From a virus (lineage: Duplodnaviria; Caudoviricetes), in the IMG/VR virus record IMGVR_UViG_3300044991_001466: a stretch of 64,000 nucleotides of DNA; one strand, 5' to 3'. Positions within the stretch are counted from its first letter, which is position 1; the number at the start of each line of letters is the position of its first letter. The notes beneath the pieces were generated by a model. The model was not told where the DNA came from. It made no database searches and saw only the letters and a list, made by a program, of their open reading frames with translations. This document shows positions 17,046 through 52,772 of the stretch, piece after piece. The position numbers were made by a program, and so were the translations under genes.

Positions 17046-17074
17046 AAAAAAAGGTCCTTAAAAAGGACCTTTTG
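17046..17074 (-). terminator. Intrinsic terminator of tmRNA (bidirectional)
   Basis: aaggtcct/aggacctt inverted repeat flanked by A and T tracts. Confidence 0.75.
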
Positions 17075-17468
17075 TGGAGATGACGGGACTCGAACCCGTG
17101 TCTTTCCGGTTCAACAATAAATGACTACACGTTTATTCAATTAGTTCTTAATTGACAAATAGAAGGTTAATATCAGGAAACCTACAATACTGTTCCTAAC
17201 CGGATTTTCAAGAGCCGTCAAGTTTGCTCCAACACTCTGGGGTTATGTTCCACCGAAGGGACTTCTGTTCCTAGGTTATATGTCCATCGACCCGATTGTA
17301 GTTTCGCCTTAGGCTACTGCTACGTTAGAAGTTGCAAGTAAACCTGCAATTTCCATGTTTGTGTAAACGTTTCCGTTTGAAATTTTCCACCGTAGATTTA
17401 AGTCATAGATGAAGTCTGACTACGTGCCATTTATCCCTGATACCTGAAATCAATTCCATGGCATCCCC
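17075..17468 (-). ncRNA. ssrA: tmRNA
   Basis: 5' GGGGATG pairs with 3' CATCTCC-A (G3:U70 alanine determinant); T-arm CGGG-TTCGAGT-CCCG; internal tag ORF. Confidence 0.93.
17309..17374 (-). other. tmRNA tag reading frame GNVYTNMEIAGLLATSNVAVA*
   Basis: Open 21-codon frame ending in VAVA-TAA after tttcaaac; resume codon inferred. Confidence 0.7.
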
Positions 17469-28861: not shown

Positions 28862-28878
28862 AATTCTTATTTTTAGAG

Positions 28879-28952
28879 TGGACCAGATAGGAATCGAACC
28901 TATTACCTTCACATTATGAGTGTGCCGCTCTAACCTAGTGAGCTACAAGTCC
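28879..28952 (-). tRNA. tRNA with CAT anticodon (Ile2 or elongator Met)
   Basis: Full cloverleaf; loop CTCATAA; A73; CCA not encoded. Confidence 0.9.
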
Positions 28953-28962
28953 AAAATTTACG

Positions 28963-29036
28963 TAATCCCGTTTGGATTCGAACCAAAGACCCACATCTTA
29001 GAAGGATGTTGCTCTATCCAACTGAGCTACGGAACC
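28963..29036 (-). tRNA. tRNA-Arg(TCT)
   Basis: Cloverleaf; ACATC-CTTCTAA-GATGT. Confidence 0.92.
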
Positions 29037-29076
29037 AAAATTAACACTATCGTCTTTGAAAGTTTTTATTTAATCG

Positions 29077-29325
29077 TTATGCCTTACGGCTTATTGTTAT
29101 TTTACTCTCAAGTTTATCTAAACGTGAATCCAATACACGATAAACATCGTTCATTGCATTTTCACGTTCTCTGTTTTGATTTTCAATCTCTCTTCCGAGA
29201 CATTGTTCTACTTCTCTAATTTCTTTGTTTAGTTTATTAACCTTAACAAAGGCAATAACCGCAACTACCGCAACTGCGATAACCACAACTATTGACATTC
29301 CTAAAATAAATGATAATATATCCAT
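29077..29325 (-). CDS. Small TM plus coiled-coil protein
   Basis: Likely start MDILSF at 29325. Confidence 0.55.
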   Translation of the reverse strand: MDILSFILGMSIVVVIAVAVVAVIAFVKVNKLNKEIREVEQCLGREIENQNRERENAMNDVYRVLDSRLDKLESKITISRKA

Positions 29326-29381
29326 ATTAATTTTCTCCTTTATTTTCAAAGAACGATAGTGTTGTAATAAAATATAACAAA

Positions 29382-29411
29382 AAAAACCCGAATAAAAAAA
29401 TTCGGGTTTTT
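29382..29411. terminator. Bidirectional intrinsic terminator downstream of tRNA-Ser
   Basis: aaaaacccgaa/ttcgggttttt inverted repeat. Confidence 0.7.
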
Positions 29412-29416
29412 CTGTT

Positions 29417-29507
29417 TGGCGGAGAGAGTAGGATTCGAACCCACGGGCCAGTTTCCCGGCCTCCTGATTTCAAGTCAGGTGCAATAGACCAACTCTACCA
29501 TCTCTCC
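29417..29507 (-). tRNA. tRNA-Ser(TGA)
   Basis: Cloverleaf with long variable arm; CCTGA-CTTGAAA-TCAGG; G73 and encoded CCA. Confidence 0.95.
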
Positions 29508-29626
29508 AATTTTCCCGTTTTTTCCTCACATTTAGCCCAATCAACAGTGAGACATTGATTGGATTTTGATCATAGAAGCTTATAAGGTTTCCCCATTAAG
29601 CCGTTACCACGGGCAAACTAAATCAG

Positions 29627-29700
29627 CGGACTAGACGAGACTCGAACTCGCGACCTTCGGCGTGACAAGCCGACATTCTAACCAACTGAACTACCAATCC
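29627..29700 (-). tRNA. tRNA-Asp(GTC), canonical
   Basis: TCGGC-TTGTCAC-GCCGA; G73. Confidence 0.94.
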
Positions 29701-30719: not shown

Positions 30720-30831
30720 AATACTTAGTTTAATACATTAATATAACCATATTTTTTAAGAAAACAAAACATTTGTTAAAAAATAACATATGAGTTTTAT
30801 CAGTAGTTCATTTTAGCAGTATTTATAGACA

Positions 30832-30925: not shown

Positions 30926-31576
30926 ATGGAAAAAATCAAATCACTCACTATTAACATTAGCGACAAACTTGTAACGATATTATTATCGTTAGTTGGAGTT
31001 TGGATTGCGTTCGCACTATGTTTTCAATTATTCTTCGTTTATTTAGAACTTTCTGGTAAAGATGAATTGCAAAGAAATGTAATAAATTGGATTGAATGGA
31101 GAATCGACGGTACATTCAAAAATTCACCTGAAAACATTTGGTATAATGCTGACGACCACATGTGGGTTGAAAGTGTAACCAACGAGGTTAAAATCGGTAA
31201 ATTGGCCGGTAATAGAAATTTAGCTTTTGGGGTTAAAAATGTTTTAGAAGAATTACTACAAGAAAAGGGGTATGATTTATCTGAGTCATCACCATACAAA
31301 ATAAAAGTACAAATTGTTTATTTAGATGTTCTTACAACAAAAAAGAACATATCTGTTTTCCATTCTGGTGTGGAGGAAGTGGTTATTAGACTGAAGGGAA
31401 CGTTAACAAAAGACGGTAAAAAAGAAAAAGAATTAGTTGTTGAAGAATCATCATCTGAGGTTTCTATGTCTACACTAATTGTTGATGAAGGAGGTTCATT
31501 TAACCAAACTTCTTTAAGTAACGCACTCAAAAAAGCAAGTGAAAAACTAATAAATAAATTAATAGACAAAAAATGA
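30926..31576 (+). CDS. CsgG/TolB-N-like fold protein with N-terminal TM
   Basis: GVKNVLEELL, FNQTSLSNALKKA resembles the C-terminus of 38543..39265. Confidence 0.45.
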   Translation: MEKIKSLTINISDKLVTILLSLVGVWIAFALCFQLFFVYLELSGKDELQRNVINWIEWRIDGTFKNSPENIWYNADDHMWVESVTNEVKIGKLAGNRNLAFGVKNVLEELLQEKGYDLSESSPYKIKVQIVYLDVLTTKKNISVFHSGVEEVVIRLKGTLTKDGKKEKELVVEESSSEVSMSTLIVDEGGSFNQTSLSNALKKASEKLINKLIDKK

Positions 31577-33234
31577 AAAAACTAATCTCCATCATTGGGT
31601 TGTTCTTAATAACCTACACGTCATTTGGTCAACTGACCATTAATCAATCGTTCACTCCGACTTCAAATTTAAAAGTTGGTGACACTCTTTCGATAAAATA
31701 TACCGTTGATAGAGGTACAACAACACCAAGATATTTTTGGTTAAGGTATCAATTTAATAATAAGGCATTATCTTACGTTTCAACCGTATTTTCACAAGGA
31801 ACTTCGGTACAAACATTTTATACTGGTTGGACTGGATATAAATTTACACCAAGTACTGCAAATAGTATTACCGCCACAAGTTTATATGCACAATATTTAG
31901 TAAGTCCTTGGGGTTATGCGGCAAACGTAGATTGGAACGTTGGTCAATTAACAGTACAAAGAACTGACGCATCAATCAACGGAGATATTGCAACTCAAAA
32001 ATATGTAATCAAAGATTTAGTTGATTACACAAATATTCATAAATTAGATTTATCATATTCAATCGATGCAACAAGTGCAAGTATTACACCAATTACCACA
32101 AATCCCGGTACAATATCATTAGGTTCAGTAAAAGGTGGTACTTCTTCATTTAAGGTGAGAGTGTTGTTTCCACAAGGATATACGATTGCTGACCACGGGA
32201 TTTCGTTATTACAATTAAACGCGACTAAAACTGATGTTGATTGGACTAAAGCCCCATTAGCATTTAAACAATTAGATGCAAGTGGTGAAGCGACATTTAC
32301 AACCGAAGTTAAAGTAGGAGATACGATTGGATTAATGGTGAGTCCGCCAAATGGTAAAACATGGATGAACAATGTTATAACAGTGTCTGACGCATATAAA
32401 GCATTTTTAGGTATTGCTCAAACTGACATTAATGGCACAAAAAACTTTTTCCAATATAATCGAGAAAGAATAATGGCTAATGTATCTAAAGATGATGGTA
32501 CGGGTACAGAGATTTATAATGAGACAGATGCATATTATTTATTTTCACATGTAATGGGTATAGATGTGAGTACAAAGGCATTTATTCCGTCATCTACCGC
32601 CACAACACTTCGTTATGGTAGTTCATTATTAAATCAAGGATGGTTAGATGGTACAAATAAGTATATAACAACCGTAACATCAGCAACACAAGCGGTGGAT
32701 ATGGTTTTTGCTTGGAATGGTGATTTAGATTTTTCTCACTCATCTTCATTAACTGAAATTGCAAGTAGAATATCAACTGGTAATTACGCAAATTCAATTA
32801 AAGGTAATGATGAAGTTGGAGTTAATAAATCAATGTCAGTTCAATCAATGTCATATAATCAAGTATTTGAAACTGCTAAATTAAGTTTAACCTCTACAAT
32901 AGTTAACGGTAAGGTAGTATTGACTGGTAATTTAACAAAAGAAGGTTTAGCTGGTTTAGAGGTTATATTACAATATGATAATTCTAAATTAACTTTTGAT
33001 AACATTTCATTTGATGCGGGTCCAAGTGTAACTAACTTTTCAACAAATGCAGATGGTAGATTAACATTTGGTTCTATGGATCAAACAAAAACCGCAAGAA
33101 TTAAGACAGGTACACCATATAAATTAACATTTACACCAAAAGAAACCATAACAAACACCTCAGGTTTATTCTATACAGTTTTAGCTGATGCTGTTGATGG
33201 AAACGGAAACAAAATTAATTTGACAGTGGAGTAA
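31573..33234 (+). CDS. Secreted protein with dockerin-like and cohesin-like modules
   Basis: Signal peptide; ITVSDAY...ANV...NETDAY (dockerin-like); GLEVILQYDNSKLTFD (cohesin-like). Confidence 0.6.
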   Translation: MKKLISIIGLFLITYTSFGQLTINQSFTPTSNLKVGDTLSIKYTVDRGTTTPRYFWLRYQFNNKALSYVSTVFSQGTSVQTFYTGWTGYKFTPSTANSITATSLYAQYLVSPWGYAANVDWNVGQLTVQRTDASINGDIATQKYVIKDLVDYTNIHKLDLSYSIDATSASITPITTNPGTISLGSVKGGTSSFKVRVLFPQGYTIADHGISLLQLNATKTDVDWTKAPLAFKQLDASGEATFTTEVKVGDTIGLMVSPPNGKTWMNNVITVSDAYKAFLGIAQTDINGTKNFFQYNRERIMANVSKDDGTGTEIYNETDAYYLFSHVMGIDVSTKAFIPSSTATTLRYGSSLLNQGWLDGTNKYITTVTSATQAVDMVFAWNGDLDFSHSSSLTEIASRISTGNYANSIKGNDEVGVNKSMSVQSMSYNQVFETAKLSLTSTIVNGKVVLTGNLTKEGLAGLEVILQYDNSKLTFDNISFDAGPSVTNFSTNADGRLTFGSMDQTKTARIKTGTPYKLTFTPKETITNTSGLFYTVLADAVDGNGNKINLTVE

Positions 33235-33237
33235 TCT

Positions 33238-35532
33238 ATGAATAAATTATTTTTAATATTATTTTTATTTACATCATTCTTAGGGTTCGGACAGAGTGTA
33301 TCTGCTCCGGACTCTAAATCTTTTTTACCATCCACAAATGGACAAGATGCAAGTGGGTTTATATTAAGTGGATTCAGTTCTACGGCAACTCTATTAGCAT
33401 CAATCAGTTTAGTAGAATTCCCAACAGGTACAACATTTGTATTAAATACAACAACGGGCCTAACTGCTGCAAGTGGATTTACTTTAAGTGGTAATAAAAC
33501 TCGTTTAGTAATAACGGGTACAATGACAAGTATCAATACGGCATTGACATCCCTAAAAATAAACACAGGTTCGGTAGTTGGTAATGTAAAATTATCGGTT
33601 GCTGCAACAATTAATCCAACAGGATTTTATTACAATGGTGTAAATGGTCATTTTTATAAACCCGTAACGGCAGGTACAACTTATACTGGTGCTAGAGCAG
33701 CATCGTTATTAACAACATTCAAAGGGCAGACGGGGTATTTGGTAACAATAACATCGGCATCTGAAAATGCTTTTATATTTGCTAATGTACCACAAGCTAA
33801 CATATGGTTTGCAGCAACGGATGAAGTTACCGATGGTAGATGGGTAATTGATGCGGGACCTGAAAAGGGGACGGTAATGAAAACCCAAAACGGACAACTT
33901 AATGGAAACATTGCCGGCGTATATAACAACTGGGCACAAGGTGAACCAAATGGTGGTAATCATACTGAGGATTATGCAGTAACAAATTGGAACGGACAAT
34001 CAACATGGAATGACTTATCAAACAATTGGACTAATCCATACATAATTGAATATGGAACTTGGACTAATCCTGATGATGCAACATTTACGGAGTTTTACAC
34101 CAATAGTGTATCTCATTCAAATGGTGAAGTCCTAACTGCTAAATTTAATTTTGACTTTGGTGGTAATGTGGATGAAACTAAATTTTCAACAAAGGCAAAT
34201 AGATATGTAAATAATCTATGGAGTACCACTACCAACACATCAAGAGCAATAAGTGGATTGGGTAAGGTTGATATTACAAATGATTTGGATACCGCAAAGG
34301 TAAGTGGGGTTGGTACTAAAGCAACAACATCCGCCGGACAAGTTGAATGGGCAATAATAAATCCATATGATGCAAATTTAGGTGGACATCAATTGTTAAT
34401 AGATGAAAGAGAATTTGATGGAACTGGAGTATCTCCAAGTAATGTAACATCAATTAAATTATTTGATATATACGATGGACCGGTTAGTGTTCATAGTGTA
34501 AGTGGTTTTTGGAAAACTTATATAATGCCGGGTAATTTGACAACCAAAATAACTTCATCTACATTTCAAGCTCAATTAAGATTACAAGATGGTTGGTATG
34601 GAACGAGAGCTGAATTTACTTTCTCACCAATTCAAAGTTATAAACAACACGGGATTGAATTAACATATACCAATCAAACGGATTTAAACACTTTATACAA
34701 TAGTGTTGTGACCGTATCGGATGTGTTTATTGCATTCAAAGAATTATCAAATGGTGGGATATTTGGAAATGAAAGTGGAAATGAATTCACATCAGGTATT
34801 CAATTTTTGAACGCGGATGTAGATGGTAATGGTATATTCAACGAAGCGGATACATACAAACTATTACAACATTTGACAGGAGTTCAACCACTTACACAAA
34901 ATCCACTATTAACTTTTCTGATGAAACTTTATAGTAAATCAGATTATGATTCAATTACTAAATCTAATTGGAATACAAAATTCAATTCAACAAGAAGTTT
35001 ATATCCGTTTAGTTTAAATACGGGTACACTTAATAACACATACAATGTTAATGTTACTTGGAAAGGTGATGTAAACCTATCTCATTCTGCACAACAAAGT
35101 GCAACTGGTGTCTCCGGTAATTCTATTAGAACTATGAGTTTGAGTACTAATTCAGTTTCAAATGAAGTAAACGCTTTAATTATGGGCGAAACCGTAGGTA
35201 ATAAAGTTATAGTTACAATATCAATAGACCCATTACAACAAGAAGTGGTGGGAACACAATTTCAATTAAACTATGATAATACCTCATTAAGTTTTGAGAA
35301 GGTGGAGTTTACAACTAAGGGAAACCCAACCAATTTTGGAAGTGATAGAGGTAATTATATTACATTGGGTTCATTAATAACTGATGGGTCAACTCTATTA
35401 GATAAAACAACAGAATATAAAATAACATTTGTACCAAAAATTGAATTGGGTGGAATATTGGGATTGACTTCAATATCAACAACCGATGCCGTTAATAAAG
35501 ATGGTAAACAATTAAAAATTAAATTGAACTAA
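33238..35532 (+). CDS. Secreted C-type lectin / dockerin-like / cohesin-like protein
   Basis: Signal peptide; NGHFY...GYLVTITS..EN, YNNWAQGEPN, WNDL (CTL with EPN motif); ADVDGNGIFNEAD; GTQFQLNYD. Confidence 0.75.
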   Translation: MNKLFLILFLFTSFLGFGQSVSAPDSKSFLPSTNGQDASGFILSGFSSTATLLASISLVEFPTGTTFVLNTTTGLTAASGFTLSGNKTRLVITGTMTSINTALTSLKINTGSVVGNVKLSVAATINPTGFYYNGVNGHFYKPVTAGTTYTGARAASLLTTFKGQTGYLVTITSASENAFIFANVPQANIWFAATDEVTDGRWVIDAGPEKGTVMKTQNGQLNGNIAGVYNNWAQGEPNGGNHTEDYAVTNWNGQSTWNDLSNNWTNPYIIEYGTWTNPDDATFTEFYTNSVSHSNGEVLTAKFNFDFGGNVDETKFSTKANRYVNNLWSTTTNTSRAISGLGKVDITNDLDTAKVSGVGTKATTSAGQVEWAIINPYDANLGGHQLLIDEREFDGTGVSPSNVTSIKLFDIYDGPVSVHSVSGFWKTYIMPGNLTTKITSSTFQAQLRLQDGWYGTRAEFTFSPIQSYKQHGIELTYTNQTDLNTLYNSVVTVSDVFIAFKELSNGGIFGNESGNEFTSGIQFLNADVDGNGIFNEADTYKLLQHLTGVQPLTQNPLLTFLMKLYSKSDYDSITKSNWNTKFNSTRSLYPFSLNTGTLNNTYNVNVTWKGDVNLSHSAQQSATGVSGNSIRTMSLSTNSVSNEVNALIMGETVGNKVIVTISIDPLQQEVVGTQFQLNYDNTSLSFEKVEFTTKGNPTNFGSDRGNYITLGSLITDGSTLLDKTTEYKITFVPKIELGGILGLTSISTTDAVNKDGKQLKIKLN

Positions 35533-36425
35533 TGAAAAAACTAATAATAATTCTGTTACTAATTTCGATTACATTTGTTACAAAAGCCCAAATTGTAAAA
35601 CCCGATACATTACAATTATCACCAAAGGAATTATTTGGTGAAAGTGATGATTGGAACGATGTGGGTGTATTACAATCCTATGTTAATTTTTCAAAAGATG
35701 TGCTTTCATCCTCAAACTTATCAGTTGGTATAATCGGAAAGCAAGTATCCACTACTCTTAATTTGGGTTACAATAAATCATCTATGAATGGGCAATGGGG
35801 TCACACATTCGCAGCATCAATAAATCCTATATGGAACTATTATGGTGTGGGATATGGTCTTAGTAAAAATACCGAAAAGAGAACAACCACATTACAATCA
35901 TTTTATTCAACCGATTTTGATTTTCAAAAAGATATTACACTATCATTCATCGATGTATTCAGAACTAAAAAGTTTGGAACATTTGGATATAGTTTAATTG
36001 CATCAAAATCTTTTTGGGGAACATATGAAGGTCAATGGGAAGGAAAATATACGGTAGATGAAAATGGTGATTTTAAAGATTTAATATACCCAATGATACC
36101 GGCATCAAGTGAAATAAGTTATAGAGGTATGGTGATGTACACATATACATTGAAAACAAAGAGAGTAAACATATCACCACAAATATTTGCAATGAGTGAT
36201 GTATATAAAGTATTTAAAGATGGTACTACATCGGATTTATCGTATTTTGATGATTTCAATTTGGACTTATATTATGGTACATCTATCGATTGGAAGGTAA
36301 CTAAAAGATTTGTATTAAATACTAATATTAGATATAACACAACTTTTGATAAATTAAGTGAATCAGTTGGTTATAAAAAGAGTAACCCAATAATGTTTAT
36401 GATAGGAACAAACTTTCAATTTTAA
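35532..36425 (+). CDS. Outer-membrane beta-barrel protein
   Basis: Signal peptide, alternating beta pattern, C-terminal ...GTNFQF. Confidence 0.65.
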   Translation: MKKLIIILLLISITFVTKAQIVKPDTLQLSPKELFGESDDWNDVGVLQSYVNFSKDVLSSSNLSVGIIGKQVSTTLNLGYNKSSMNGQWGHTFAASINPIWNYYGVGYGLSKNTEKRTTTLQSFYSTDFDFQKDITLSFIDVFRTKKFGTFGYSLIASKSFWGTYEGQWEGKYTVDENGDFKDLIYPMIPASSEISYRGMVMYTYTLKTKRVNISPQIFAMSDVYKVFKDGTTSDLSYFDDFNLDLYYGTSIDWKVTKRFVLNTNIRYNTTFDKLSESVGYKKSNPIMFMIGTNFQF

Positions 36426-36766
36426 TGAAAAAGACATTACTCATATTTGTAATTTTATTGGTGGGATGTGTTAAACCAGACCTGCCTGTTCCAATACCAC
36501 AAATTACCTATGTATTTGATGTAAAGGAAAGTGAAGTAACAAATGGACAGGATATATATTTTAAACTGCCATCCGATGGTATACATACTTTAACTTTAAT
36601 TGATAAAGAAAGTGGGCAAGTGGTTAGTAGAGAAAAATTTAATGGTAAATCGGGTGAAAATGTGAAAAAAATTTACACCAATTCCCTACTTAAGGGATAT
36701 TTACTATTAGTGTTGGAAGACAATAATAAGAATCAATTAGGTAAAACAATAATAATAAATAAATAA
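36425..36766 (+). CDS. Lipoprotein with T9SS C-terminal-domain-like Ig fold
   Basis: Lipobox LVGC; TLTLID..GQVV...SLLKGYLLLVL...TIIINK. Confidence 0.5.
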   Translation: MKKTLLIFVILLVGCVKPDLPVPIPQITYVFDVKESEVTNGQDIYFKLPSDGIHTLTLIDKESGQVVSREKFNGKSGENVKKIYTNSLLKGYLLLVLEDNNKNQLGKTIIINK

Positions 36767-36782
36767 AAGAAACCCAAGTCAA

Positions 36783-37157
36783 ATGAAAAAGCTATTTATA
36801 GTGGTATTAAGTTTAATGATTCTTACAGGTTGTAGAAAAGAACAGGATTTTCTTCCAACTATTCAACAAGCACCCGAAGATTTGAAAATATCTAGTTCTT
36901 TAGGTATTAAATTACAATCACCATTTGTCACTTCAGAGGTTGCAATGAATGTTAAAAGTGAAATTGTGGGATCTGTAACAATTAAGATATTTGACATCTC
37001 AAATAGAGTTGTTTCAAAAGAGACCGTTAACGTAATTGTTGGAGATAATATACTTAAAGTATATACGTCATCATTACCAAATTCAGCATATAGAATTGGT
37101 TTTTTTGATTCAAAAAATAATATGTTAGGAATAACAGATTTTAATAAAATAAACTAA
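36783..37157 (+). CDS. Lipoprotein with T9SS C-terminal-domain-like Ig fold
   Basis: Lipobox LTGC; IKIFDISNRVV...SSLPNSAYRI. Confidence 0.5.
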   Translation: MKKLFIVVLSLMILTGCRKEQDFLPTIQQAPEDLKISSSLGIKLQSPFVTSEVAMNVKSEIVGSVTIKIFDISNRVVSKETVNVIVGDNILKVYTSSLPNSAYRIGFFDSKNNMLGITDFNKIN

Positions 37158-37175
37158 AAATTAAACACAAATAAA

Positions 37176-37493
37176 ATGGCAGAAGAAACACAAGAACAAG
37201 AAGGAACATGGTCAAGTCTTAAAAAGACAATAATTGGAATTGCAGGAACAGTAGTAACCGCTGGCGGCGTATGGTTAACAACATTGTTAGGTGGTGGTGA
37301 CAAAGCCGAACCCGCACCAGTACAAGCCGCACCAGTAATTAACATTACAACTAATCAAACTCAACAACAAGCTGCTGGTGGTAATAAAACTGTAATCATC
37401 AATAAAGGTGGTGATGGTAAAACAACCCAACCAGTTGCAAAACCTAAGAAAAAAGAAGGTGATGAGTTTAAAGAAGAGGCACCTAAATGGTAA
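37176..37493 (+). CDS. Single-pass membrane protein
   Basis: TM IIGIAGTVVTAGGVWLTTLL. Confidence 0.6.
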   Translation: MAEETQEQEGTWSSLKKTIIGIAGTVVTAGGVWLTTLLGGGDKAEPAPVQAAPVINITTNQTQQQAAGGNKTVIINKGGDGKTTQPVAKPKKKEGDEFKEEAPKW

Positions 37494-37615
37494 TTATGCT
37501 TTCTATGATAAACCAACTATTTTATTTAATATCAGGATTATTGATAACAGTCGGAATTGTATGTGGCGTTATGTACACAGCAATTAAGTTAAATGAAAAA
37601 TTAAATTAAAAAAAA

Positions 37616-38209
37616 ATGAGTAAACAACAATCACCAAGTGGTTTTAAAGATTTATTAAGTAACATGATGGCCAGAAGATGGTATATCACAGCATTGGTGT
37701 TAGGTGGGTTTATGTTAATAATTGGTGGTATGTTTGTTGCCATTATTAATAAAAATGAAATTGCCGGAGAATGGAAAGAACTTCTTTTATTATTATTGGG
37801 AGCTTTCATCGGTTCTTATGGTAAAATCATTGACTATTGGTTTAGTGATACCGATAAGGATAAGATGTTAGTCCAAAAAATGGATGAAGAAGATGGTACC
37901 TCATTAAGTAACACTGCCGATTTACCAAACAACCCAATTGTACCTATGTCGACCGCACCATTGGTTTTACCAACAAGTGAAGAAGTTGAAGTACCCAAAC
38001 CACAACCCCGTACAGGTGTTGAAGTAGATGAAGATGGGGATGGCATAATGGACGGTATTGATTTTGATGGTGATGGTAAAATTGATATGTACTTTGCACA
38101 TAGACAATGTGAGCACGTATGGGGAGATTTAGATGGTGACGGTATCGAGGAGTGTTTGAAATGTGGTAAAATAAAAGATGAAAATGCAGAAATGCACACG
38201 GAAGGATAA
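37616..38209 (+). CDS. Holin-like 2-TM protein with C-terminal DxDGDG calcium-binding-like repeats
   Basis: Two TMs, IIDYWFS; DEDGDG, DFDGDG, DLDGDG. Confidence 0.5.
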   Translation: MSKQQSPSGFKDLLSNMMARRWYITALVLGGFMLIIGGMFVAIINKNEIAGEWKELLLLLLGAFIGSYGKIIDYWFSDTDKDKMLVQKMDEEDGTSLSNTADLPNNPIVPMSTAPLVLPTSEEVEVPKPQPRTGVEVDEDGDGIMDGIDFDGDGKIDMYFAHRQCEHVWGDLDGDGIEECLKCGKIKDENAEMHTEG

Positions 38210-38238
38210 AATAAACAAAAGACAAAAAATAAAAAACT

Positions 38239-38487
38239 ATGAAATTTAAAGAATGGGCTATTGAACTCTTCAAAGACGAAAGAGGTTCAATTTCAGTAAA
38301 ACCAGTTATCGCATTTGTGGGAGCAATGTTCCTATGTGTAACTATGATCTTAAATTCGTTCTCTCACGCCGAATTTGCACCATCACCTGAATTGGTGAAT
38401 GCTGTGATGATTATTACAGGAATCGGAATGGGCGCGGATACAATGGATAAATTCTCTCATAAAAAGAAAGAAGAAACGGAAGGTTAA
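38239..38487 (+). CDS. Small holin-like 2-TM protein
   Basis: DERGSIS.K motif followed by two TMs. Confidence 0.5.
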   Translation: MKFKEWAIELFKDERGSISVKPVIAFVGAMFLCVTMILNSFSHAEFAPSPELVNAVMIITGIGMGADTMDKFSHKKKEETEG

Positions 38488-38490
38488 TAT

Positions 38491-38517
38491 AAAGGGAGTT
38501 AAAAACTCCCTTTTTTT
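38491..38517 (+). terminator. Intrinsic terminator
   Basis: aaagggagtt/aactccc plus T7. Confidence 0.75.
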
Positions 38518-38542
38518 ATGTATTTATATTAAAATAAGATGT

Positions 38543-39265
38543 ATGAAAAAATTATTAATATTATTAAGCGTTTTTTTACTAAGCGCTGTTGTCGTTGACG
38601 GACAAACAATAGGTAAAACTAAGACAGAGGACTACAAGGCGGACTTTGAAAAAAAAAGAGATATAAGTGCGTACATGGATTACGATGGTCCTCAAATTCC
38701 AATTCAAATATTAAAGGCAGGAATTTCTGACGAGATGTATGAAATGTATCCTGAACTAAAAGAAAAACGTGTTGGTTTAGGTGTTGCAAATATATCTATG
38801 GAATACCTTGAAAACTTAAACAGATTTAAATTTACTGAAGACAAGACAGAAATTAAGAATAGGATGGTAAAACAATTTCAAGCATCTGCGGCAGGTATTT
38901 CTGAGAATAAATTAGATGGTCGTGGTAAAATCAATTTGGCAAAGTATTTTGTGACGATTGAGTGTTATGACTACTCAGTGTCAGAAGATGAAACCATCAA
39001 CCTTAAAAATGGTATACAAGACAATATGGTAACTCGTATAGGTCTTCAGGTTAGGTTTACAGATGCGGAGACAGGTGTCTTATTTGGTGGGTCAGGTTTA
39101 GGTGAAGCAACAACAAAAAGAGAATTAACTCTTTTATCTGATGCATCTATTGACCCAATTAAATTCAACCAATCAACAATTAGTATTGCAACTAAAAAGG
39201 CGTTAGATATTGCCTGTGCTAACATTCTTGATAGAATGATTAAAAAGGGAATATTTGCAAAATAA
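38543..39265 (+). CDS. CsgG/HfaB-like curli-assembly/secretion protein
   Basis: Signal peptide; GLGVANI..EYL...RF...E; YFVTIECYDY; IGLQVRFTDAETG..FGGSG. Confidence 0.65.
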   Translation: MKKLLILLSVFLLSAVVVDGQTIGKTKTEDYKADFEKKRDISAYMDYDGPQIPIQILKAGISDEMYEMYPELKEKRVGLGVANISMEYLENLNRFKFTEDKTEIKNRMVKQFQASAAGISENKLDGRGKINLAKYFVTIECYDYSVSEDETINLKNGIQDNMVTRIGLQVRFTDAETGVLFGGSGLGEATTKRELTLLSDASIDPIKFNQSTISIATKKALDIACANILDRMIKKGIFAK

Positions 39266-39292
39266 CTATATTTTAAAGATTTAATAAAAAAT

Positions 39293-39317
39293 AAGGGGTG
39301 TAATAACCCCTTTTTTT
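39293..39317 (+). terminator. Intrinsic terminator
   Basis: aaggggt/acccc plus T7. Confidence 0.65.
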
Positions 39318-39329
39318 ATATTTATAAGT

Positions 39330-39566
39330 ATGAGAGTGTGTGAAGTAATTGATGTACCACAAAAAGTTGATTGTGAAAACTGTGTCCCTTGTTTAAGATT
39401 AAAAATGATGGAGATGGGGTTTATATGTGGACAACAAATTGAAATAAGTGAAAAAAAGTTAGGATTATATTTGGTTAATGTTTTATCCGGTAGTGGCCAC
39501 GTAGAATCAACTTTAGCGTTAAGACCTGAAGAATTAGATAGAGTTATTTTAAAAGATATATTATGA
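39330..39566 (+). CDS. FeoA-domain (SH3-like) protein
   Basis: RLKMMEMGFICGQQIEI, LALRPEE. Confidence 0.7.
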   Translation: MRVCEVIDVPQKVDCENCVPCLRLKMMEMGFICGQQIEISEKKLGLYLVNVLSGSGHVESTLALRPEELDRVILKDIL

Positions 39567-39742
39567 AAAAATTTATAAGAATTCACGACGACAAAGTTTT
39601 TTTTGGTGTATGTAGTGGTTTAAGTCACCGTACTAATGTTGATCCATTGGTTTGGAGGTTGTTGTTCTTTTTTTTAATATTTTCACCATTCCCAATAATA
39701 ACCGGTTATTTACTAACCACAATTTTAACTGAAACAGTATGA
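39563..39742 (+). CDS. PspC-domain membrane protein (59 aa, absent from the ORF track)
   Basis: Hand-translated MKKFIRIHDDKVFFGVCSGLSHRTNVDPLVWRLLFFFLIF...; ATGA overlaps at both ends. Confidence 0.8.
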   Translation: MKKFIRIHDDKVFFGVCSGLSHRTNVDPLVWRLLFFFLIFSPFPIITGYLLTTILTETV

Positions 39743-40581
39743 AAAAGGTTTTATTAGTTACAGGTTTAATATTAATATTAATATTATTCTGCACAATAAT
39801 GTTGAATGCTCAAGTATCAACTTGGAGGCAAACTGGTGGAAGCGTTCCATCACAAACATCACAATCAACTCAAACAAGAGTTCAACCATCTGTACCACAA
39901 CAACAAAATGTGAGTAGTTGGAGAAACAACCCACCACAACAATCACAACCATTACCACCACGTGGTAGGGGAGGTATTCAAAATTGGGGTCGAGTTAATC
40001 AGTTTGGTTACTATTGGGGTAATTGGGGATGGTATCAACCTTATCCTTATACTTGGTATGATGATTATGGATGGAGACAAAGAAGTGTAATTCATGTATA
40101 CGAAAATGGAAAGAGAGATACTATTAGAAAAGAACGAGTTCATACCGCATTTGGATTTGGGTATACTAATAATAAACAAGCAACTTATTGGGGAATGGTT
40201 GGTGGTAAGAAAGGATATTTTATTATGGATTATGTAATGACTTATGCAAAAGACCAAAACCAATACTTTCCGTATGGACAAATTAACAATGTTGATTTTT
40301 CACTTAGTAAAGAAGATTGGAAAAAAGAATCAACTTTTTATATTGGTGCTGGTAAAAGAATTAATAATATAGGAATACATGGTATGATAGGGTTTGGTAG
40401 TGAAGTTATTAGATGGCAAGGTAAAGATGACTTAGGTGGTATATCATTTCCAAAATCAAATTCAACATTTACAACATTTAAAATTGGAATAATAAAAGAT
40501 TTCAAATTCTTTACTTTAAAATTAGATAACGATCCAATAAGGGGGTACACACAAATAGGAATAGGATTGAATAATAAGTAA
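39739..40581 (+). CDS. Outer-membrane beta-barrel protein with Q/P-rich and W/G/Y-rich N-terminal region
   Basis: Signal peptide; low-complexity linker; beta pattern ending GYTQIGIGLNNK. Confidence 0.6.
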   Translation: MKKVLLVTGLILILILFCTIMLNAQVSTWRQTGGSVPSQTSQSTQTRVQPSVPQQQNVSSWRNNPPQQSQPLPPRGRGGIQNWGRVNQFGYYWGNWGWYQPYPYTWYDDYGWRQRSVIHVYENGKRDTIRKERVHTAFGFGYTNNKQATYWGMVGGKKGYFIMDYVMTYAKDQNQYFPYGQINNVDFSLSKEDWKKESTFYIGAGKRINNIGIHGMIGFGSEVIRWQGKDDLGGISFPKSNSTFTTFKIGIIKDFKFFTLKLDNDPIRGYTQIGIGLNNK

Positions 40582-42161
40582 TGAAAAAAATAATAATATC
40601 TCTCCTAATATTATTTTTTTGTAGTAAGTCTTTTGGACAAAGTACAATAACACAAACGTACATAGACCCGTGTGATAATAAAGTCTATGTTGTTGTAATT
40701 CCATTCGGACAAAATCAAACTGTTGCTGTTATTAGGGGTAAATCTAAAATTGTAACATTAGCCGACATTAGTAGTGGTACTTTTCAAACATGGGTGAATA
40801 GTATATTTGCAACACCTTGTCCACAAAACGATAATATCAGATTAGCACAAGAAGCCGCAGCAAGGGCGGCAGCAGATGCCGCAGCTAGAGCCGCCGCGGA
40901 TGCTGCGGCAAAAGCGGCTGCGGATGCTGCGGCAAAGGCCGCATCAGATGCTGCAGCAAAGGCGGCGGCAGATGCTGCAGCTGCAAGTGCATCGTCAGCC
41001 GCAAGTAATTCAGCATCATCGGCAGCAAGTTCATCGGCAAGTGCCGCCGCAAGTTCTGCAGCTGCAAATGCTGCAACACCTCCACCAATAAACATTGCAC
41101 CTCCACCACCCGCTCCGGTAGTTACTGCACCTCCACCAACGGCAGCACCTCCACCGGCATCAAGTAGTTCATCACCACCTCCCGCAAGTGGTGGTTCATC
41201 TTCTTCTTCATCAAGTAGTTCATCATCAACTGAAGCAAAACCAGCAGAAAGTAAACCAGCGGAAACTAAATCAGATAAACCAGCTGAACAAAAAACCGAA
41301 GAAAAGAAAACTGAAGCTAAGACAGAAGAAAAGAAAGAGGAAACAAAAACAGAAGAAAAGAAATCAGAAGAAAAAAAGACTGAGGAGAAAAAGGAAGAAG
41401 CTAAAAAAGAAGAAGAAAAGAAAGAGGAAACTAAAAAGGAGGAAGAAAAAAAGAAAGAGGAAGAAAAGAAAAAAGAAGAAGAAAAAAAGAAAAAACAAGA
41501 AGTAACAAATCCAACGTTACTTGCGTCAGATATAACCGGTGCAGAACAACCAGACGGAACTTATTTAGCCTCAATTTCAATGGGACTTAGTAAATCATCT
41601 TTGGCGGGTGATGTAAGTTATAGTACAGGATTGGTTGTGAATAGTAATTTAAGTTCTATTGTAATGACGGGTGGAATTACTAAAATGGGATTAACAAAAG
41701 ATGGACAGTTAGATGCAATACATTCATACGGAACCGCATTTGCATATTTAGGTGGGAATTACATGAATTTGTTAGGTTACACTTGGATTAAACCTACACC
41801 AAAAAAAGGTACATATGGTTATAACGTAGGTATTATTAATTTATTTCTTAAAAATGATAGTGGTGGATTTGATTATAATATGGCCAGTTCGGCAATTGTA
41901 TTTTGGACTAAACCTTATCAATATTCAAAAAAATTAACGGTTTCTCCACAAGTGTTTACAATGTTCTCACCCATATCATGGAATAGTTCAAATGGTGAAA
42001 CAAACGTGAATAGACATATGGGATTTTTATTGGGGGCGGCTTTTGATTATAAAATAACAAAAAGATTTGGGTTTAGTTTTAATTACAAAATGAGTGGGAA
42101 TACTAATCCAGGTTCTCCATTTTTAAGTAATTTCTTAATTGGCTCAAGAATGATGCTTTAA
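40581..42161 (+). CDS. Envelope protein with TolA-like Ala-rich, Pro/Ser-rich and Lys/Glu-rich stalk and C-terminal beta-barrel
   Basis: Signal peptide; (AAADAAAK)n; PPPP; (KKEEE)n; beta-rich C-terminus. Confidence 0.65.
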   Translation: MKKIIISLLILFFCSKSFGQSTITQTYIDPCDNKVYVVVIPFGQNQTVAVIRGKSKIVTLADISSGTFQTWVNSIFATPCPQNDNIRLAQEAAARAAADAAARAAADAAAKAAADAAAKAASDAAAKAAADAAAASASSAASNSASSAASSSASAAASSAAANAATPPPINIAPPPPAPVVTAPPPTAAPPPASSSSSPPPASGGSSSSSSSSSSSTEAKPAESKPAETKSDKPAEQKTEEKKTEAKTEEKKEETKTEEKKSEEKKTEEKKEEAKKEEEKKEETKKEEEKKKEEEKKKEEEKKKKQEVTNPTLLASDITGAEQPDGTYLASISMGLSKSSLAGDVSYSTGLVVNSNLSSIVMTGGITKMGLTKDGQLDAIHSYGTAFAYLGGNYMNLLGYTWIKPTPKKGTYGYNVGIINLFLKNDSGGFDYNMASSAIVFWTKPYQYSKKLTVSPQVFTMFSPISWNSSNGETNVNRHMGFLLGAAFDYKITKRFGFSFNYKMSGNTNPGSPFLSNFLIGSRMML

Positions 42162-52739: not shown

Positions 52740-52763
52740 GGGAGGTTTAACCTCCCTTTTTTT
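52740..52763 (+). terminator. Intrinsic terminator
   Basis: gggagg-ttta-acctccc plus T7. Confidence 0.75.
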
Positions 52764-52764
52764 G

Positions 52765-52772
52765 TATTTATA
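52765..52772 (+). promoter_or_regulatory. Representative late-promoter-like motif TATTTATA
   Basis: Same octamer upstream of late genes at 1329, 11698, 11996, 16908, 30820, 38521, 39319, 48734, 52765, 54594, 57901, 58663. Confidence 0.75.

Follow-up and report, generated by a model that had tools for sequence, protein, structure and literature searches.

The stretch analysed here (64,000 nucleotides, referred to as the window) is part of the 129.7-kb IMG/VR virus record IMGVR_UViG_3300044991_001466, whose completeness was estimated at 39%. Between positions 30926 and 42161 it carries a cassette of 14 open reading frames (ORFs) on the + strand, named g1 to g14, which are nearly gapless and set between two − strand blocks. 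All products of this cassette of about 11 kb are annotated as hypothetical. The G+C content of the window is about 31%. A T4-type RNA ligase and a Clp-like ATPase are encoded in the window as well, and the terminase, portal, prohead protease and major head genes lie 3′ of the cassette. Contigs related to this genome reach 300-335 kb. The predicted host is a member of the Bacteroidota, because the start codons lack Shine-Dalgarno sequences, the signal peptides terminate in ...GQ or ...AQ, and the closest cultured relative for the key gene is a phage infecting Flavobacterium. A Sediminibacterium genome bin contains one of the related contigs, which is only suggestive for the host. The window's stretch occurs in 23 lake-water DNA runs (filed under 23 studies), and a DNA search of the GenBank phages with the cassette gave no match. 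The genes are as follows.

30926-31576, + strand, g1: 216 amino acids (aa), N-terminal membrane anchor and YajG/Lipoprotein_16-like (TraT-like) periplasmic domain
31573-33234, + strand, g2: 553 aa, secreted; degenerate dockerin-like segment, C-terminal cohesin-like module, no tag of the type IX secretion system (T9SS)
33238-35532, + strand, g3: 764 aa, secreted, paralogous to g2; C-type lectin domain of the EPN type (about 131-275), a single dockerin-like repeat with canonical Ca loop (527-548), cohesin-like C-terminus
35532-36425, + strand, g4: 297 aa, predicted outer-membrane beta-barrel, paralogue of the g14 C-terminus, ends ...NFQF; accessory
36425-36766, + strand, g5: 113 aa lipoprotein (LLVGC), mature part a beta-sandwich resembling the T9SS C-terminal sorting domain
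36783-37157, + strand, g6: 124 aa lipoprotein (ILTGC), paralogue of g5, likewise with a sorting-domain-like fold
37176-37493, + strand, g7: 105 aa peptide anchored in the inner membrane, short tail in the periplasm (PVINI...KTVII...terminal W); core
37616-38209, + strand, g8: 197 aa two-helix membrane protein, acidic C-terminus with DxDGDG loops and Cys pairs
38239-38487, + strand, g9: 82 aa two-helix small membrane protein with charged tail; holin candidate
38543-39265, + strand, g10: 240 aa CsgG-superfamily protein, cleavable signal peptide without lipobox; best conserved of the cassette genes
39330-39566, + strand, g11: 78 aa FeoA-like small protein, the sole product without export signal; accessory
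39563-39742, + strand, g12: 59 aa PspC-domain membrane protein; accessory
39739-40581, + strand, g13: 280 aa secreted protein, Q/N/W/Y-rich N-terminal half, strand-like C-terminal half; accessory
40581-42161, + strand, g14: 526 aa, signal peptide, small two-Cys head, stalk of about 220 aa and predicted C-terminal outer-membrane beta-barrel (306-526); core

A hydrophobic N-terminus or transmembrane helix was detected in 12 of the 14 cassette products versus 6 of the 67 other ORFs of the window (Fisher P 2e-8), and in 13 if g7 is counted, whose Gly-rich helix falls just below the threshold of the test. By direct reading, cleavable signal peptides are present on g2, g3, g4, g10, g13 and g14, lipoboxes on g5 (LLVGC) and g6 (ILTGC), one N-terminal membrane helix in g1 and in g7, two helices in g8 and in g9, one in g12 and none in g11. 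The C-terminal 300 aa or so are common to g2 and g3 (BLASTP, expect value (E) 6e-18), and the lipoproteins g5 and g6 are paralogous as well (BLASTP E 5e-6). The original prediction for this DNA, which had described 14 co-oriented genes with mostly exported or membrane products, among them two paralogous secreted proteins and two lipoproteins, was borne out in these respects. A PHROGs search with all 14 proteins returned no match except signal-peptide-level ones for g6, and an NCBIfam scan of the cassette proteins gave nothing meaningful.

Co-occurrence of the genes was counted in two sets of related loci (38 and 39 loci, with 10 kb on both sides). The genes g1, g2, g3, g7 and g10 were present in every fully covered locus of both sets (38/38 and 39/39), followed by g8 (95-97% of loci), g5 and g6 (85-100%) and g14 (82-92%). 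The remaining genes were found in 55-64% (g4) or about half of the loci (g9 and g13), and g11 (4/38 and 9/39) as well as g12 (1/38 and 8/39) were rare. The gene order is fixed among relatives, and g14 follows g10 in all lineages. More than 100 contigs from four phage lineages carry the core: outside the lineage of the window, g7, g10, g14 and the cohesin protein, together with g1 and g8, recur in three others, one of which includes the cultured Flavobacterium phage vB_FspM_immuto (hereafter immuto), with g10 being 37-56% identical. The core gene g7, found in all four lineages, is 46% identical to immuto gp016. A relative of g10 is encoded in more than 535 IMG/VR stretches. Co-occurrence in other genomes, which had been proposed as a check of the original prediction, was thus observed for the core genes, and in this abundant group of freshwater and marine Bacteroidota phages the cassette ranks with the best conserved non-structural blocks.

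The g2 protein matches the Pfam family Cohesin (PF00963) with an E of 4.5e-5, exactly at the cut-off of 24.1 bits. Its homologues match this family better, with 3.4e-7 in the related locus L181 (full-length), 5.9e-9 for immuto gp015 and 5.1e-11 in L162, and precomputed PF00963 flags recur in many g2 relatives, in a homologue search dominated by close relatives. The g3 protein is linked to cohesins only via its homology to g2, and a profile search of the Protein Data Bank (PDB) sequences with g2 revealed no true relatives. The match at the cut-off and the higher scores of the homologues support the cohesin-like C-termini that had been proposed for both proteins. For the C-type lectin domain of g3 (PF00059), the Pfam match has an E of 2.9e-4 and 22.0 bits against a cut-off of 22.6, and the profile of the g3 lectin family recovered the lectin domains of aggrecan, CEL-I and mannose-binding protein from the PDB, with E from 4.5e-5. 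The motifs of the Ca/sugar site (E236-P-N, E244 and W257-N-D) are retained in 16 of the 18 g3 relatives, and together with the PDB matches they corroborate the predicted EPN-type lectin. In immuto, a separate C-type lectin (gp013, Pfam 3e-15) carries a dockerin-like segment, and such segments in gp013 and gp014 are encoded beside the T9SS-tagged cohesin protein gp015. The g3 match to dockerin type I (PF00404) lies below the cut-off (E 0.09); a single canonical dockerin-type Ca loop, DVDGNGIFNEAD, is present in g3 with its invariant residues plus a helix. The dockerin-like segment of g2 is degenerate and contains no DxDxDG loop. The dockerin-like parts predicted for both proteins are thus weak candidates, with one canonical loop in g3 and none in g2. 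Comparison of the per-domain identity of g2 and g3 revealed no clear hypervariable head, and profile comparison detected no T9SS sorting domain in either protein.

The mature parts of g5 and g6 resemble T9SS sorting domains, which had been overlooked in the original prediction. The match of g5 to Por_Secre_tail (PF18962) is weak (0.029); the profile of the g5/g6 family aligned with four sorting domains, taken from related phage cohesin proteins and one bacterial cargo, over 72 columns up to the last residue (hhalign 91.5%, E 8.8e-7). The architecture of T9SS type A cargo was not found, as g5 and g6 (113 and 124 aa) are lipoproteins consisting of little else and not the ends of larger secreted cargo, and we know of no described T9SS cargo that is a free-standing lipoprotein. 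The residues following the lipobox Cys of g5 and g6 are rich in K, D and E, which we take to be like the surface-export signals of Bacteroidota. Two states of the tag were found among the related loci. In the fused state, a signal peptide, a cohesin module and a Por_Secre_tail above the Pfam cut-off are joined in one protein (marine contigs, L180 and immuto gp015; 2.4e-8 to 1.9e-11), also in L144, which belongs to the same huge-phage group as the window (hhalign 94.2%), and these loci have no lipoprotein. In the split state, an untagged cohesin protein is followed by a tag-like lipoprotein, in the ratio 1:1 in L181-L205, L179, L139, L151 and L153, and 2:2 in the window with its two cohesin proteins and two lipoproteins. 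The g2 homologue of L179 has no sorting domain. By the logic of gene fusion, this pattern implies that g5 and g6 act together with g2 and g3 and are probably bound by them. Such pairing would tie the cassette to T9SS or surface-lipoprotein export, and a surface destination is supported by the predicted sorting domains, fused in the relatives and carried by separate lipoproteins here. Eight additional sorting-tag positives came from a crude regular expression; the three that were inspected (L139, L151 and L153) were false.

The g10 protein itself has no Pfam match at E 0.1. An exhaustive phmmer search with g10 yielded 213 representatives; among 36 full-length members that were aligned, linked by phmmer with E down to 1e-10 and below, 15 match or approach Pfam CsgG (PF03783; best 1.9e-17) and 7 match LpoB. 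The predicted membership of g10 in CsgG is hence transitive and at the level of the superfamily. The AlphaFold2 (AF2) model of g10 (mean predicted local distance difference test, pLDDT, 82.5) retrieved CsgG structures with all of its top 24 PDB matches in Foldseek (E 4e-7), and comparison with CsgG (VIA) gave a Z of 13.0 with a root mean square deviation (rmsd) of 3.8 A over 186 aa. The next folds were Cj1090c (10.7), PelC (9.5) and LptE (8-9), CsgG being 2-3 Z units higher. The best viral match of g10 is a phage protein named CsgG. Profile searches of PDB sequences with g10 and g1 revealed no true relatives. The identity of g10 among its relatives is 73-97%. Its signal peptide ends in ...VVVDGQ/T without Cys, and the lipobox is absent from all phage members of the group, whereas the bacterial and marine-phage homologues have ...GC in the alignment. 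The model contains one long hairpin (strands 135-153 and 157-174), followed by a strand and a low-confidence loop, and by direct reading both faces of the tip of this hairpin (145-164, SVSEDETINLKNGIQDNMVT) are polar. Searches of Pfam, NCBIfam and PHROGs matched none of the 14 products to CsgF, CsgA/B or CsgE. For g1, the Pfam match to Lipoprotein_16 (YajG) is below the cut-off (7.7e-5); in its family, 15 of 23 members match Lipoprotein_16 (best 3.8e-6) and 2 of 23 match TraT. Two CsgG-like proteins forming pores had been predicted. One of them, g10, belongs in all probability to the CsgG superfamily, whereas g1 matches YajG/TraT and not CsgG; the designation of g10 as a pore is unsupported because it has no lipobox and no recognisable amphipathic membrane hairpin. 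A paralogous relation between g1 and g10 was rejected as too weak, the alignment covering 26 columns with one helix motif (hhalign 48.7%). A second g1 paralogue with a signal peptide lies directly 5′ of g10 in many relatives (L009, L012, L016, L017, L020 and others); the window has no such copy, and its g9-g10 gap measures 55 nucleotides (nt).

The C-terminal 221 residues of g14 were modelled by AF2 as an all-beta structure with 12-14 strands (pLDDT 88.8). Foldseek matched this barrel to NanC (2e-4), FapF, OmpG, TamA and the beta-domains of autotransporters, and a comparison with the AlphaFold database gave generic outer-membrane barrels and no specific family. A stalk of about 220 aa, rich in Ala, Ser/Pro and Lys/Glu, separates the barrel from the two-Cys domain. 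The relation of g4 to the g14 C-terminus was detected by hhalign (97.9%, E 6e-13) with alignments sharing no sequence. Outer-membrane beta-barrels had been predicted originally, and for g14, by model and Foldseek, as well as for g4, by hhalign, the prediction is upheld. A profile search of PDB sequences with the g14 C-terminus revealed no true relatives. In the case of g13, no Pfam match was obtained in 17 relatives and no profile match in the PDB; the alignment of g13 with the g14 C-terminus by hhalign covered the signal peptide only and was rejected, and a heuristic based on beta-periodicity and amphipathicity failed to separate barrels from other folds.

The transcription signals predicted around the cassette are the following.

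30820..30827, + strand: TATTTATA, late-promoter-like motif, 98 nt 5′ of g1
38491..38513, + strand: intrinsic-terminator-like hairpin and T run, ending the g1-g9 unit; TATTTATA right after at 38521
39293..39312, + strand: terminator-like hairpin after g10; TATTTATA next at 39319

The cassette has copies of TATTTATA at 30820, 38521 and 39319, the three already pointed out in the original prediction, plus an additional one within g6. The number in the whole window equals chance (17 copies versus 15 ± 4 in shuffles); 10 of the 17 copies lie at most 110 nt 5′ of a co-oriented start (P 2e-8; P 2e-5 versus A/T-only 8-mers), and among these 10 the motif directly precedes the terminase, portal and prohead protease starts. 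Because of this placement before co-oriented starts, head genes included, TATTTATA is a reasonable, albeit unproven, candidate for a late promoter element, and its earlier description as a late motif agrees with a promoter-like sequence common to the cassette and the head genes. Since each hairpin is directly followed by TATTTATA, three units are predicted: g1-g9, g10 alone and g11-g14. A G+C-rich hairpin, a T run and then immediately TATTTATA were observed at 38491-38528, 39293-39326 and 52740-52772, before g10, g11 and the terminase gene, and this terminator-promoter junction looks like the standard punctuation of the late genes of this phage.

A link of the cassette to lysis genes, likewise overlooked before, emerged from the comparison of related loci. 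The g9 protein is related to a 96-aa protein of the L181 lineage (hhalign 86.5%, E 4.5e-6), whose gene lies two genes 5′ of an endolysin gene in 15 unique loci. In L181-L205, a lineage of smaller freshwater phages with contigs up to 125 kb, 19 contigs carry, co-oriented and in this order, the 96-aa two-helix protein, a 201-aa membrane protein, the endolysin (PG_binding_1 and GH19), g1, g2, the lipoprotein, g7, g10 and g14. The endolysin gene immediately follows the cassette in L179, interrupts it in L151 and adjoins it in L139, L153 and L180. In the genome of the window it is found about 36 kb 5′ of the cassette, and in immuto about 8 kb 3′ of it. No holin family match was obtained for g9 in Pfam or PHROGs. 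The absence of a small membrane-protein gene beside the endolysin implies that the holin is encoded elsewhere, for which g9 is the candidate. The endolysin gene of this genome (G000:C1:10834-11667, about 6 kb before the window start) encodes PG_binding_1 and a GH19-like domain and its product is 61% identical to that of the L181 lineage.

Overall, a conserved and envelope-directed cassette is established, and its timing is probably late. We tentatively favour an interpretation in which tag-like lipoproteins and host export would anchor the lectin/cohesin proteins on the cell surface late in infection, with g7, g10, g14 and g1 as outer-membrane support and lysis-timing genes interleaved. The cassette would belong to T4-like phages on Bacteroidota (Flavobacterium/Chitinophagaceae-type hosts) and be transcribed late, and the host Sec and lipoprotein pathways would send 13 of the 14 products to the inner membrane, the periplasm and the outer membrane. 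The adhesin part would consist of the secreted g2 and g3, both with cohesin-like modules and g3 with the Ca-dependent EPN lectin, each probably paired with one small lipoprotein (g5, g6). Each pair is most likely lipid-anchored and would reach the surface via the host T9SS or a surface-lipoprotein route, because g5 and g6 resemble a sorting domain that is fused to the cohesin protein in relatives. The proteins g7, g10, g1 and the stalked g14 barrel probably form an outer-membrane-associated support or assembly complex, and g8, g9 and g12 may act as lysis-timing genes. The net effect would be a pre-lysis cell surface coated with glycan-binding, cohesin-bearing proteins, which would mask receptors or clump cells and debris and thereby serve superinfection control, progeny protection or the capture of neighbouring hosts. 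The surface location in this lineage, the formation of a complex and the biological pay-off are what we infer. The late-built, host-surface glycan-binding apparatus of the original prediction is thus supported in part, namely with respect to export, the conserved lectin site, co-occurrence and the late motif, but not to its pores.

Several observations weigh against this interpretation. The localisation is a prediction from sequence, and g2 and g3 have no recognised outer-membrane route of their own. A lipoprotein with a sorting-domain-like fold is not a known type of T9SS cargo and could be an Ig-like adaptor. The CsgG lipid anchor is absent from g10 and the amphipathic hairpins are not recognisable, which makes any role assigned to this protein tentative, and a conservation as high as that of g10 (up to 97%) would not usually be seen in an accessory gene that modifies the surface. 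The cassette of immuto is surrounded by replication genes, so that late timing may not be general. Finally, the endolysin and holin-like genes that flank or interrupt the cassette in several relatives fit a role in lysis equally well or better.

The main rival, which we consider rather unlikely, is indeed that the cassette is the outer-membrane-breaching lysis arm of Bacteroidota phages and a functional equivalent of spanins, which to our knowledge have not been recognised in these phages. The inner-membrane proteins g7 and g1, g5 and g6 as outer-membrane lipoproteins, g10 as a ring-type protein of the periplasm and the g14 barrel on its long helical stalk would span the periplasm and destroy or open the outer membrane after the action of the holin g9 and the endolysin, and tethering to envelope glycans would be the task of the cohesin/lectin proteins. 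This would explain why the holin-like, endolysin and cassette genes stand together in the 19 contigs of L181-L205, why the endolysin gene is after, inside or beside the cassette in L179, L151, L139, L153 and L180, and why g9 is related to a small membrane protein encoded before the endolysin. The g14 stalk, rich in Ala and Lys/Glu, is like periplasm-spanning helices, g6 has a weak PHROGs match to an Rz-like spanin (within the signal peptide only), and the near-universal presence of the core genes would be expected of an essential step. However, the endolysin gene is distant both here and in immuto, known spanins consist of two small proteins and not six or more, the g7 periplasmic tail is not a coiled coil, and no role in lysis is known for T9SS sorting tags, a Ca-dependent lectin or cohesins. 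Moreover, surface-altering genes such as bor of phage lambda often adjoin lysis genes through shared late transcription, which could account for the neighbourhood without a function in lysis.

A more speculative elaboration of the surface-coating interpretation, which appears unlikely to us, is piggy-back export. The free-standing, lipid-anchored tag of g5 and g6 would hijack the T9SS or surface-lipoprotein export of the host and thereby take untagged, folded cohesin/lectin proteins to the surface, and the CsgG-like ring, the stalked barrel and the holin-type proteins would couple this coating to the timing or mechanics of the rupture of the outer membrane, providing an exit independent of spanins.

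A periplasmic module for superinfection exclusion or envelope stress at the inner face of the outer membrane, with a purpose like that of T4 Imm/Sp or T5 Llp, is distinctly improbable. Here, g10 and g1 (LptE/CsgG/TraT-type folds) would plug or bind outer-membrane receptors or routes of DNA entry, and the lectin would bind peptidoglycan or lipid-linked glycans. Consistent with this, g10 has a signal peptide but neither a lipid anchor nor a recognisable membrane hairpin, LptE (a plug protein) as well as PelC and FlgT (ring proteins) belong to its fold class, two relatives of g1 match TraT, a surface-exclusion lipoprotein, a secreted non-specific nuclease is added in the marine and immuto versions, and g2 and g3 lack an outer-membrane export signal of their own. 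The bona fide T9SS tags on the cohesin proteins of four related loci, however, point to the outside of the cell, late expression would be an odd time for starting exclusion, and there is no significant homology to known exclusion proteins. That the genes encode virion (tail or baseplate) components or are passively carried host DNA is hardly credible: although the late-type motif is common to the head genes, lectin and Ig-like modules occur on phage fibres and IMG/VR lists the record as a provirus, the cleavable Sec signal peptides and lipoboxes on 10 products cannot be reconciled with the assembly of virions in the cytoplasm, no PHROGs structural family is matched, and the block has phage tRNAs, RNA ligase and head genes as its flanks and is syntenic in contigs up to 335 kb as well as in a cultured lytic phage.

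Comparison with described systems places the cassette as a variant within the known phage-encoded host-envelope modules. Pelagiphages carry type VIII (curli) clusters with CsgG, CsgF and CsgA/B together with FecR, a kinase and a cyclase, which are taken to confer new surface properties on the infected cell and for which aggregation ('sibling capture'), defence against superinfection and import were proposed as roles (PMC9599517). As in those clusters, a conserved multi-gene block is built around a CsgG-family protein in lytic aquatic phages including T4-like myoviruses. The present cassette differs in that neither CsgF nor a subunit with curlin repeats can be recognised, g10 is without a lipobox and evident membrane hairpins, the candidate cargo comprises cohesin/lectin proteins linked to T9SS tags, the predicted host belongs to the Bacteroidota, and lysis genes are interleaved. 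A tblastn search with g10 found no pelagiphage record. With E. coli CsgG (PF03783; PDB 4uv2 and 4uv3), g10 shares the fold and significant sequence steps to Pfam CsgG proteins, whereas its signal is of the signal-peptidase-I type without a Cys lipobox, its hairpin tip is polar and it is about 40 residues shorter. T9SS type A cargo (Por_Secre_tail, PF18962 / TIGR04183) is resembled by the relatives' proteins made of signal peptide, cohesin and tag, and g5 and g6 align with it to the last residue; in the window, unlike in such cargo, the sorting-domain-like fold is a free-standing lipoprotein and not a cargo C-terminus. Cellulosome-type cohesin-dockerin systems and non-cellulosomal cohesin/dockerin-like modules share the Cohesin Pfam matches and the one canonical dockerin-type Ca loop plus helix in g3. 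In contrast to them, the dockerin match is sub-threshold, no enzyme subunits are present, and cohesin and dockerin-like parts occur in one chain.

Likeness to phage lysis cassettes lies in the relation of g9 to the protein encoded before the endolysin, the abutting endolysin in many relatives and the inner-membrane and lipoprotein members, whereas the absence of a significant holin or spanin family match, the far larger size and the glycan-binding and secretion-tagged proteins set the present cassette apart. A 'Host-interface island' of syntenic secreted and lipoprotein candidates in freshwater Flavobacterium jumbophages was read as host-surface remodelling in a 2026 preprint (10.64898/2026.04.22.720137). 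By its description, to which this comparison is confined, that island encodes a phosphohydrolase as well as acyl-carrier proteins, with no mention of CsgG, cohesins or lectins (10.64898/2026.04.22.720137). A literature search found no paper on the composition of the cassette, and the papers on phage immuto and on Baltic Flavobacterium phages make no mention of the module. The original prediction that no such phage system had been described is therefore roughly true for the composition, with the neighbouring systems of PMC9599517 and 10.64898/2026.04.22.720137 to be set beside it. New here, at the level of prediction, are g5 and g6 as look-alikes of T9SS sorting domains, the split or fused pattern of the tag, the link to holin and endolysin genes and the missing or doubtful channel features of g10.

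The cassette bears on how Bacteroidota phages breach or modify the outer membrane and on whether phages can use the T9SS. If displayed by infected cells, the Ca-dependent lectin and the cohesins would represent a new control of adsorption, aggregation and particle attachment by lytic phages, and surface display, if true, would matter for carbon flux in lakes and seas. These ideas are directly testable, because the cultured pair of Flavobacterium sp. LMO8 and phage vB_FspM_immuto carries the core.

Among the remaining products, g12 matches Pfam PspC (PF04024) with 3.6e-15 and 56 bits against a cut-off of 25, in agreement with the original prediction. The FeoA assignment of g11 was not sustained, since the match (PF04023, 5.1e-4) reaches 20.5 bits against a curated cut-off of 23 and is a lead only. 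The N-terminal 100 aa of g8 are 64% identical to a marine phage homologue of 104 aa, and an atlas search with g8 returned only viral clusters without family. The g8 tail (138-185), absent from the marine homologue, contains three back-to-back DxDGDG Ca-loop-like motifs and Cys pairs (CEH...CLKC) and could be a dockerin-like or metal-binding add-on. Residues 26-115 of g13 are extremely rich in Q, N, W, Y and G (e.g. NQFGYYWGNWGWYQPYPYTWYDDYGW), a low-complexity stretch of amyloid- or prion-like composition; if any cassette product were a curlin-like fibre subunit, g13 would be the candidate.

Members of the g10 subfamily in bacteria are lipoproteins and occur in the FCB (Fibrobacteres-Chlorobi-Bacteroidetes) group and other phyla. 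On short contigs with little gene context, the genes next to them encode caspase-like or transglutaminase-like secreted proteins, cargo of the T9SS, sensor kinases or cyclases, and a protein of 330-440 aa that has a signal peptide and weakly matches an outer-membrane barrel. Specifically, the bacterial g10-type lipoproteins adjoin Peptidase_C14, transglutaminase-like, CHASE2-cyclase and hybrid histidine kinase genes (L175 3482-7243, L178 5405-7081, L171 9382-14028 and L173 4863-7739). These neighbourhoods resemble the kinase/cyclase/FecR company of the pelagiphage curli clusters and appear to represent an uncharacterised bacterial CsgG-like system.

A secreted Endonuclease_NS (1.1e-25) with a signal peptide is encoded in the marine loci (L161-L164 and L206), in immuto (gp012; L207 6151-6729) and in the freshwater locus L151 (999-1643). 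The DNA of immuto is reported to carry 7-deazaguanine modifications (PMC10516641). Exported next to a surface module, such a nuclease could act in exclusion or remove DNA once the cell has lysed. A short way upstream of the cassette, the − strand of the window encodes a tmRNA (tag ATSNVAVA) and four tRNAs (Met, Arg-tct, Ser-tga and Asp) at 17074-17468 and 28878-29700.

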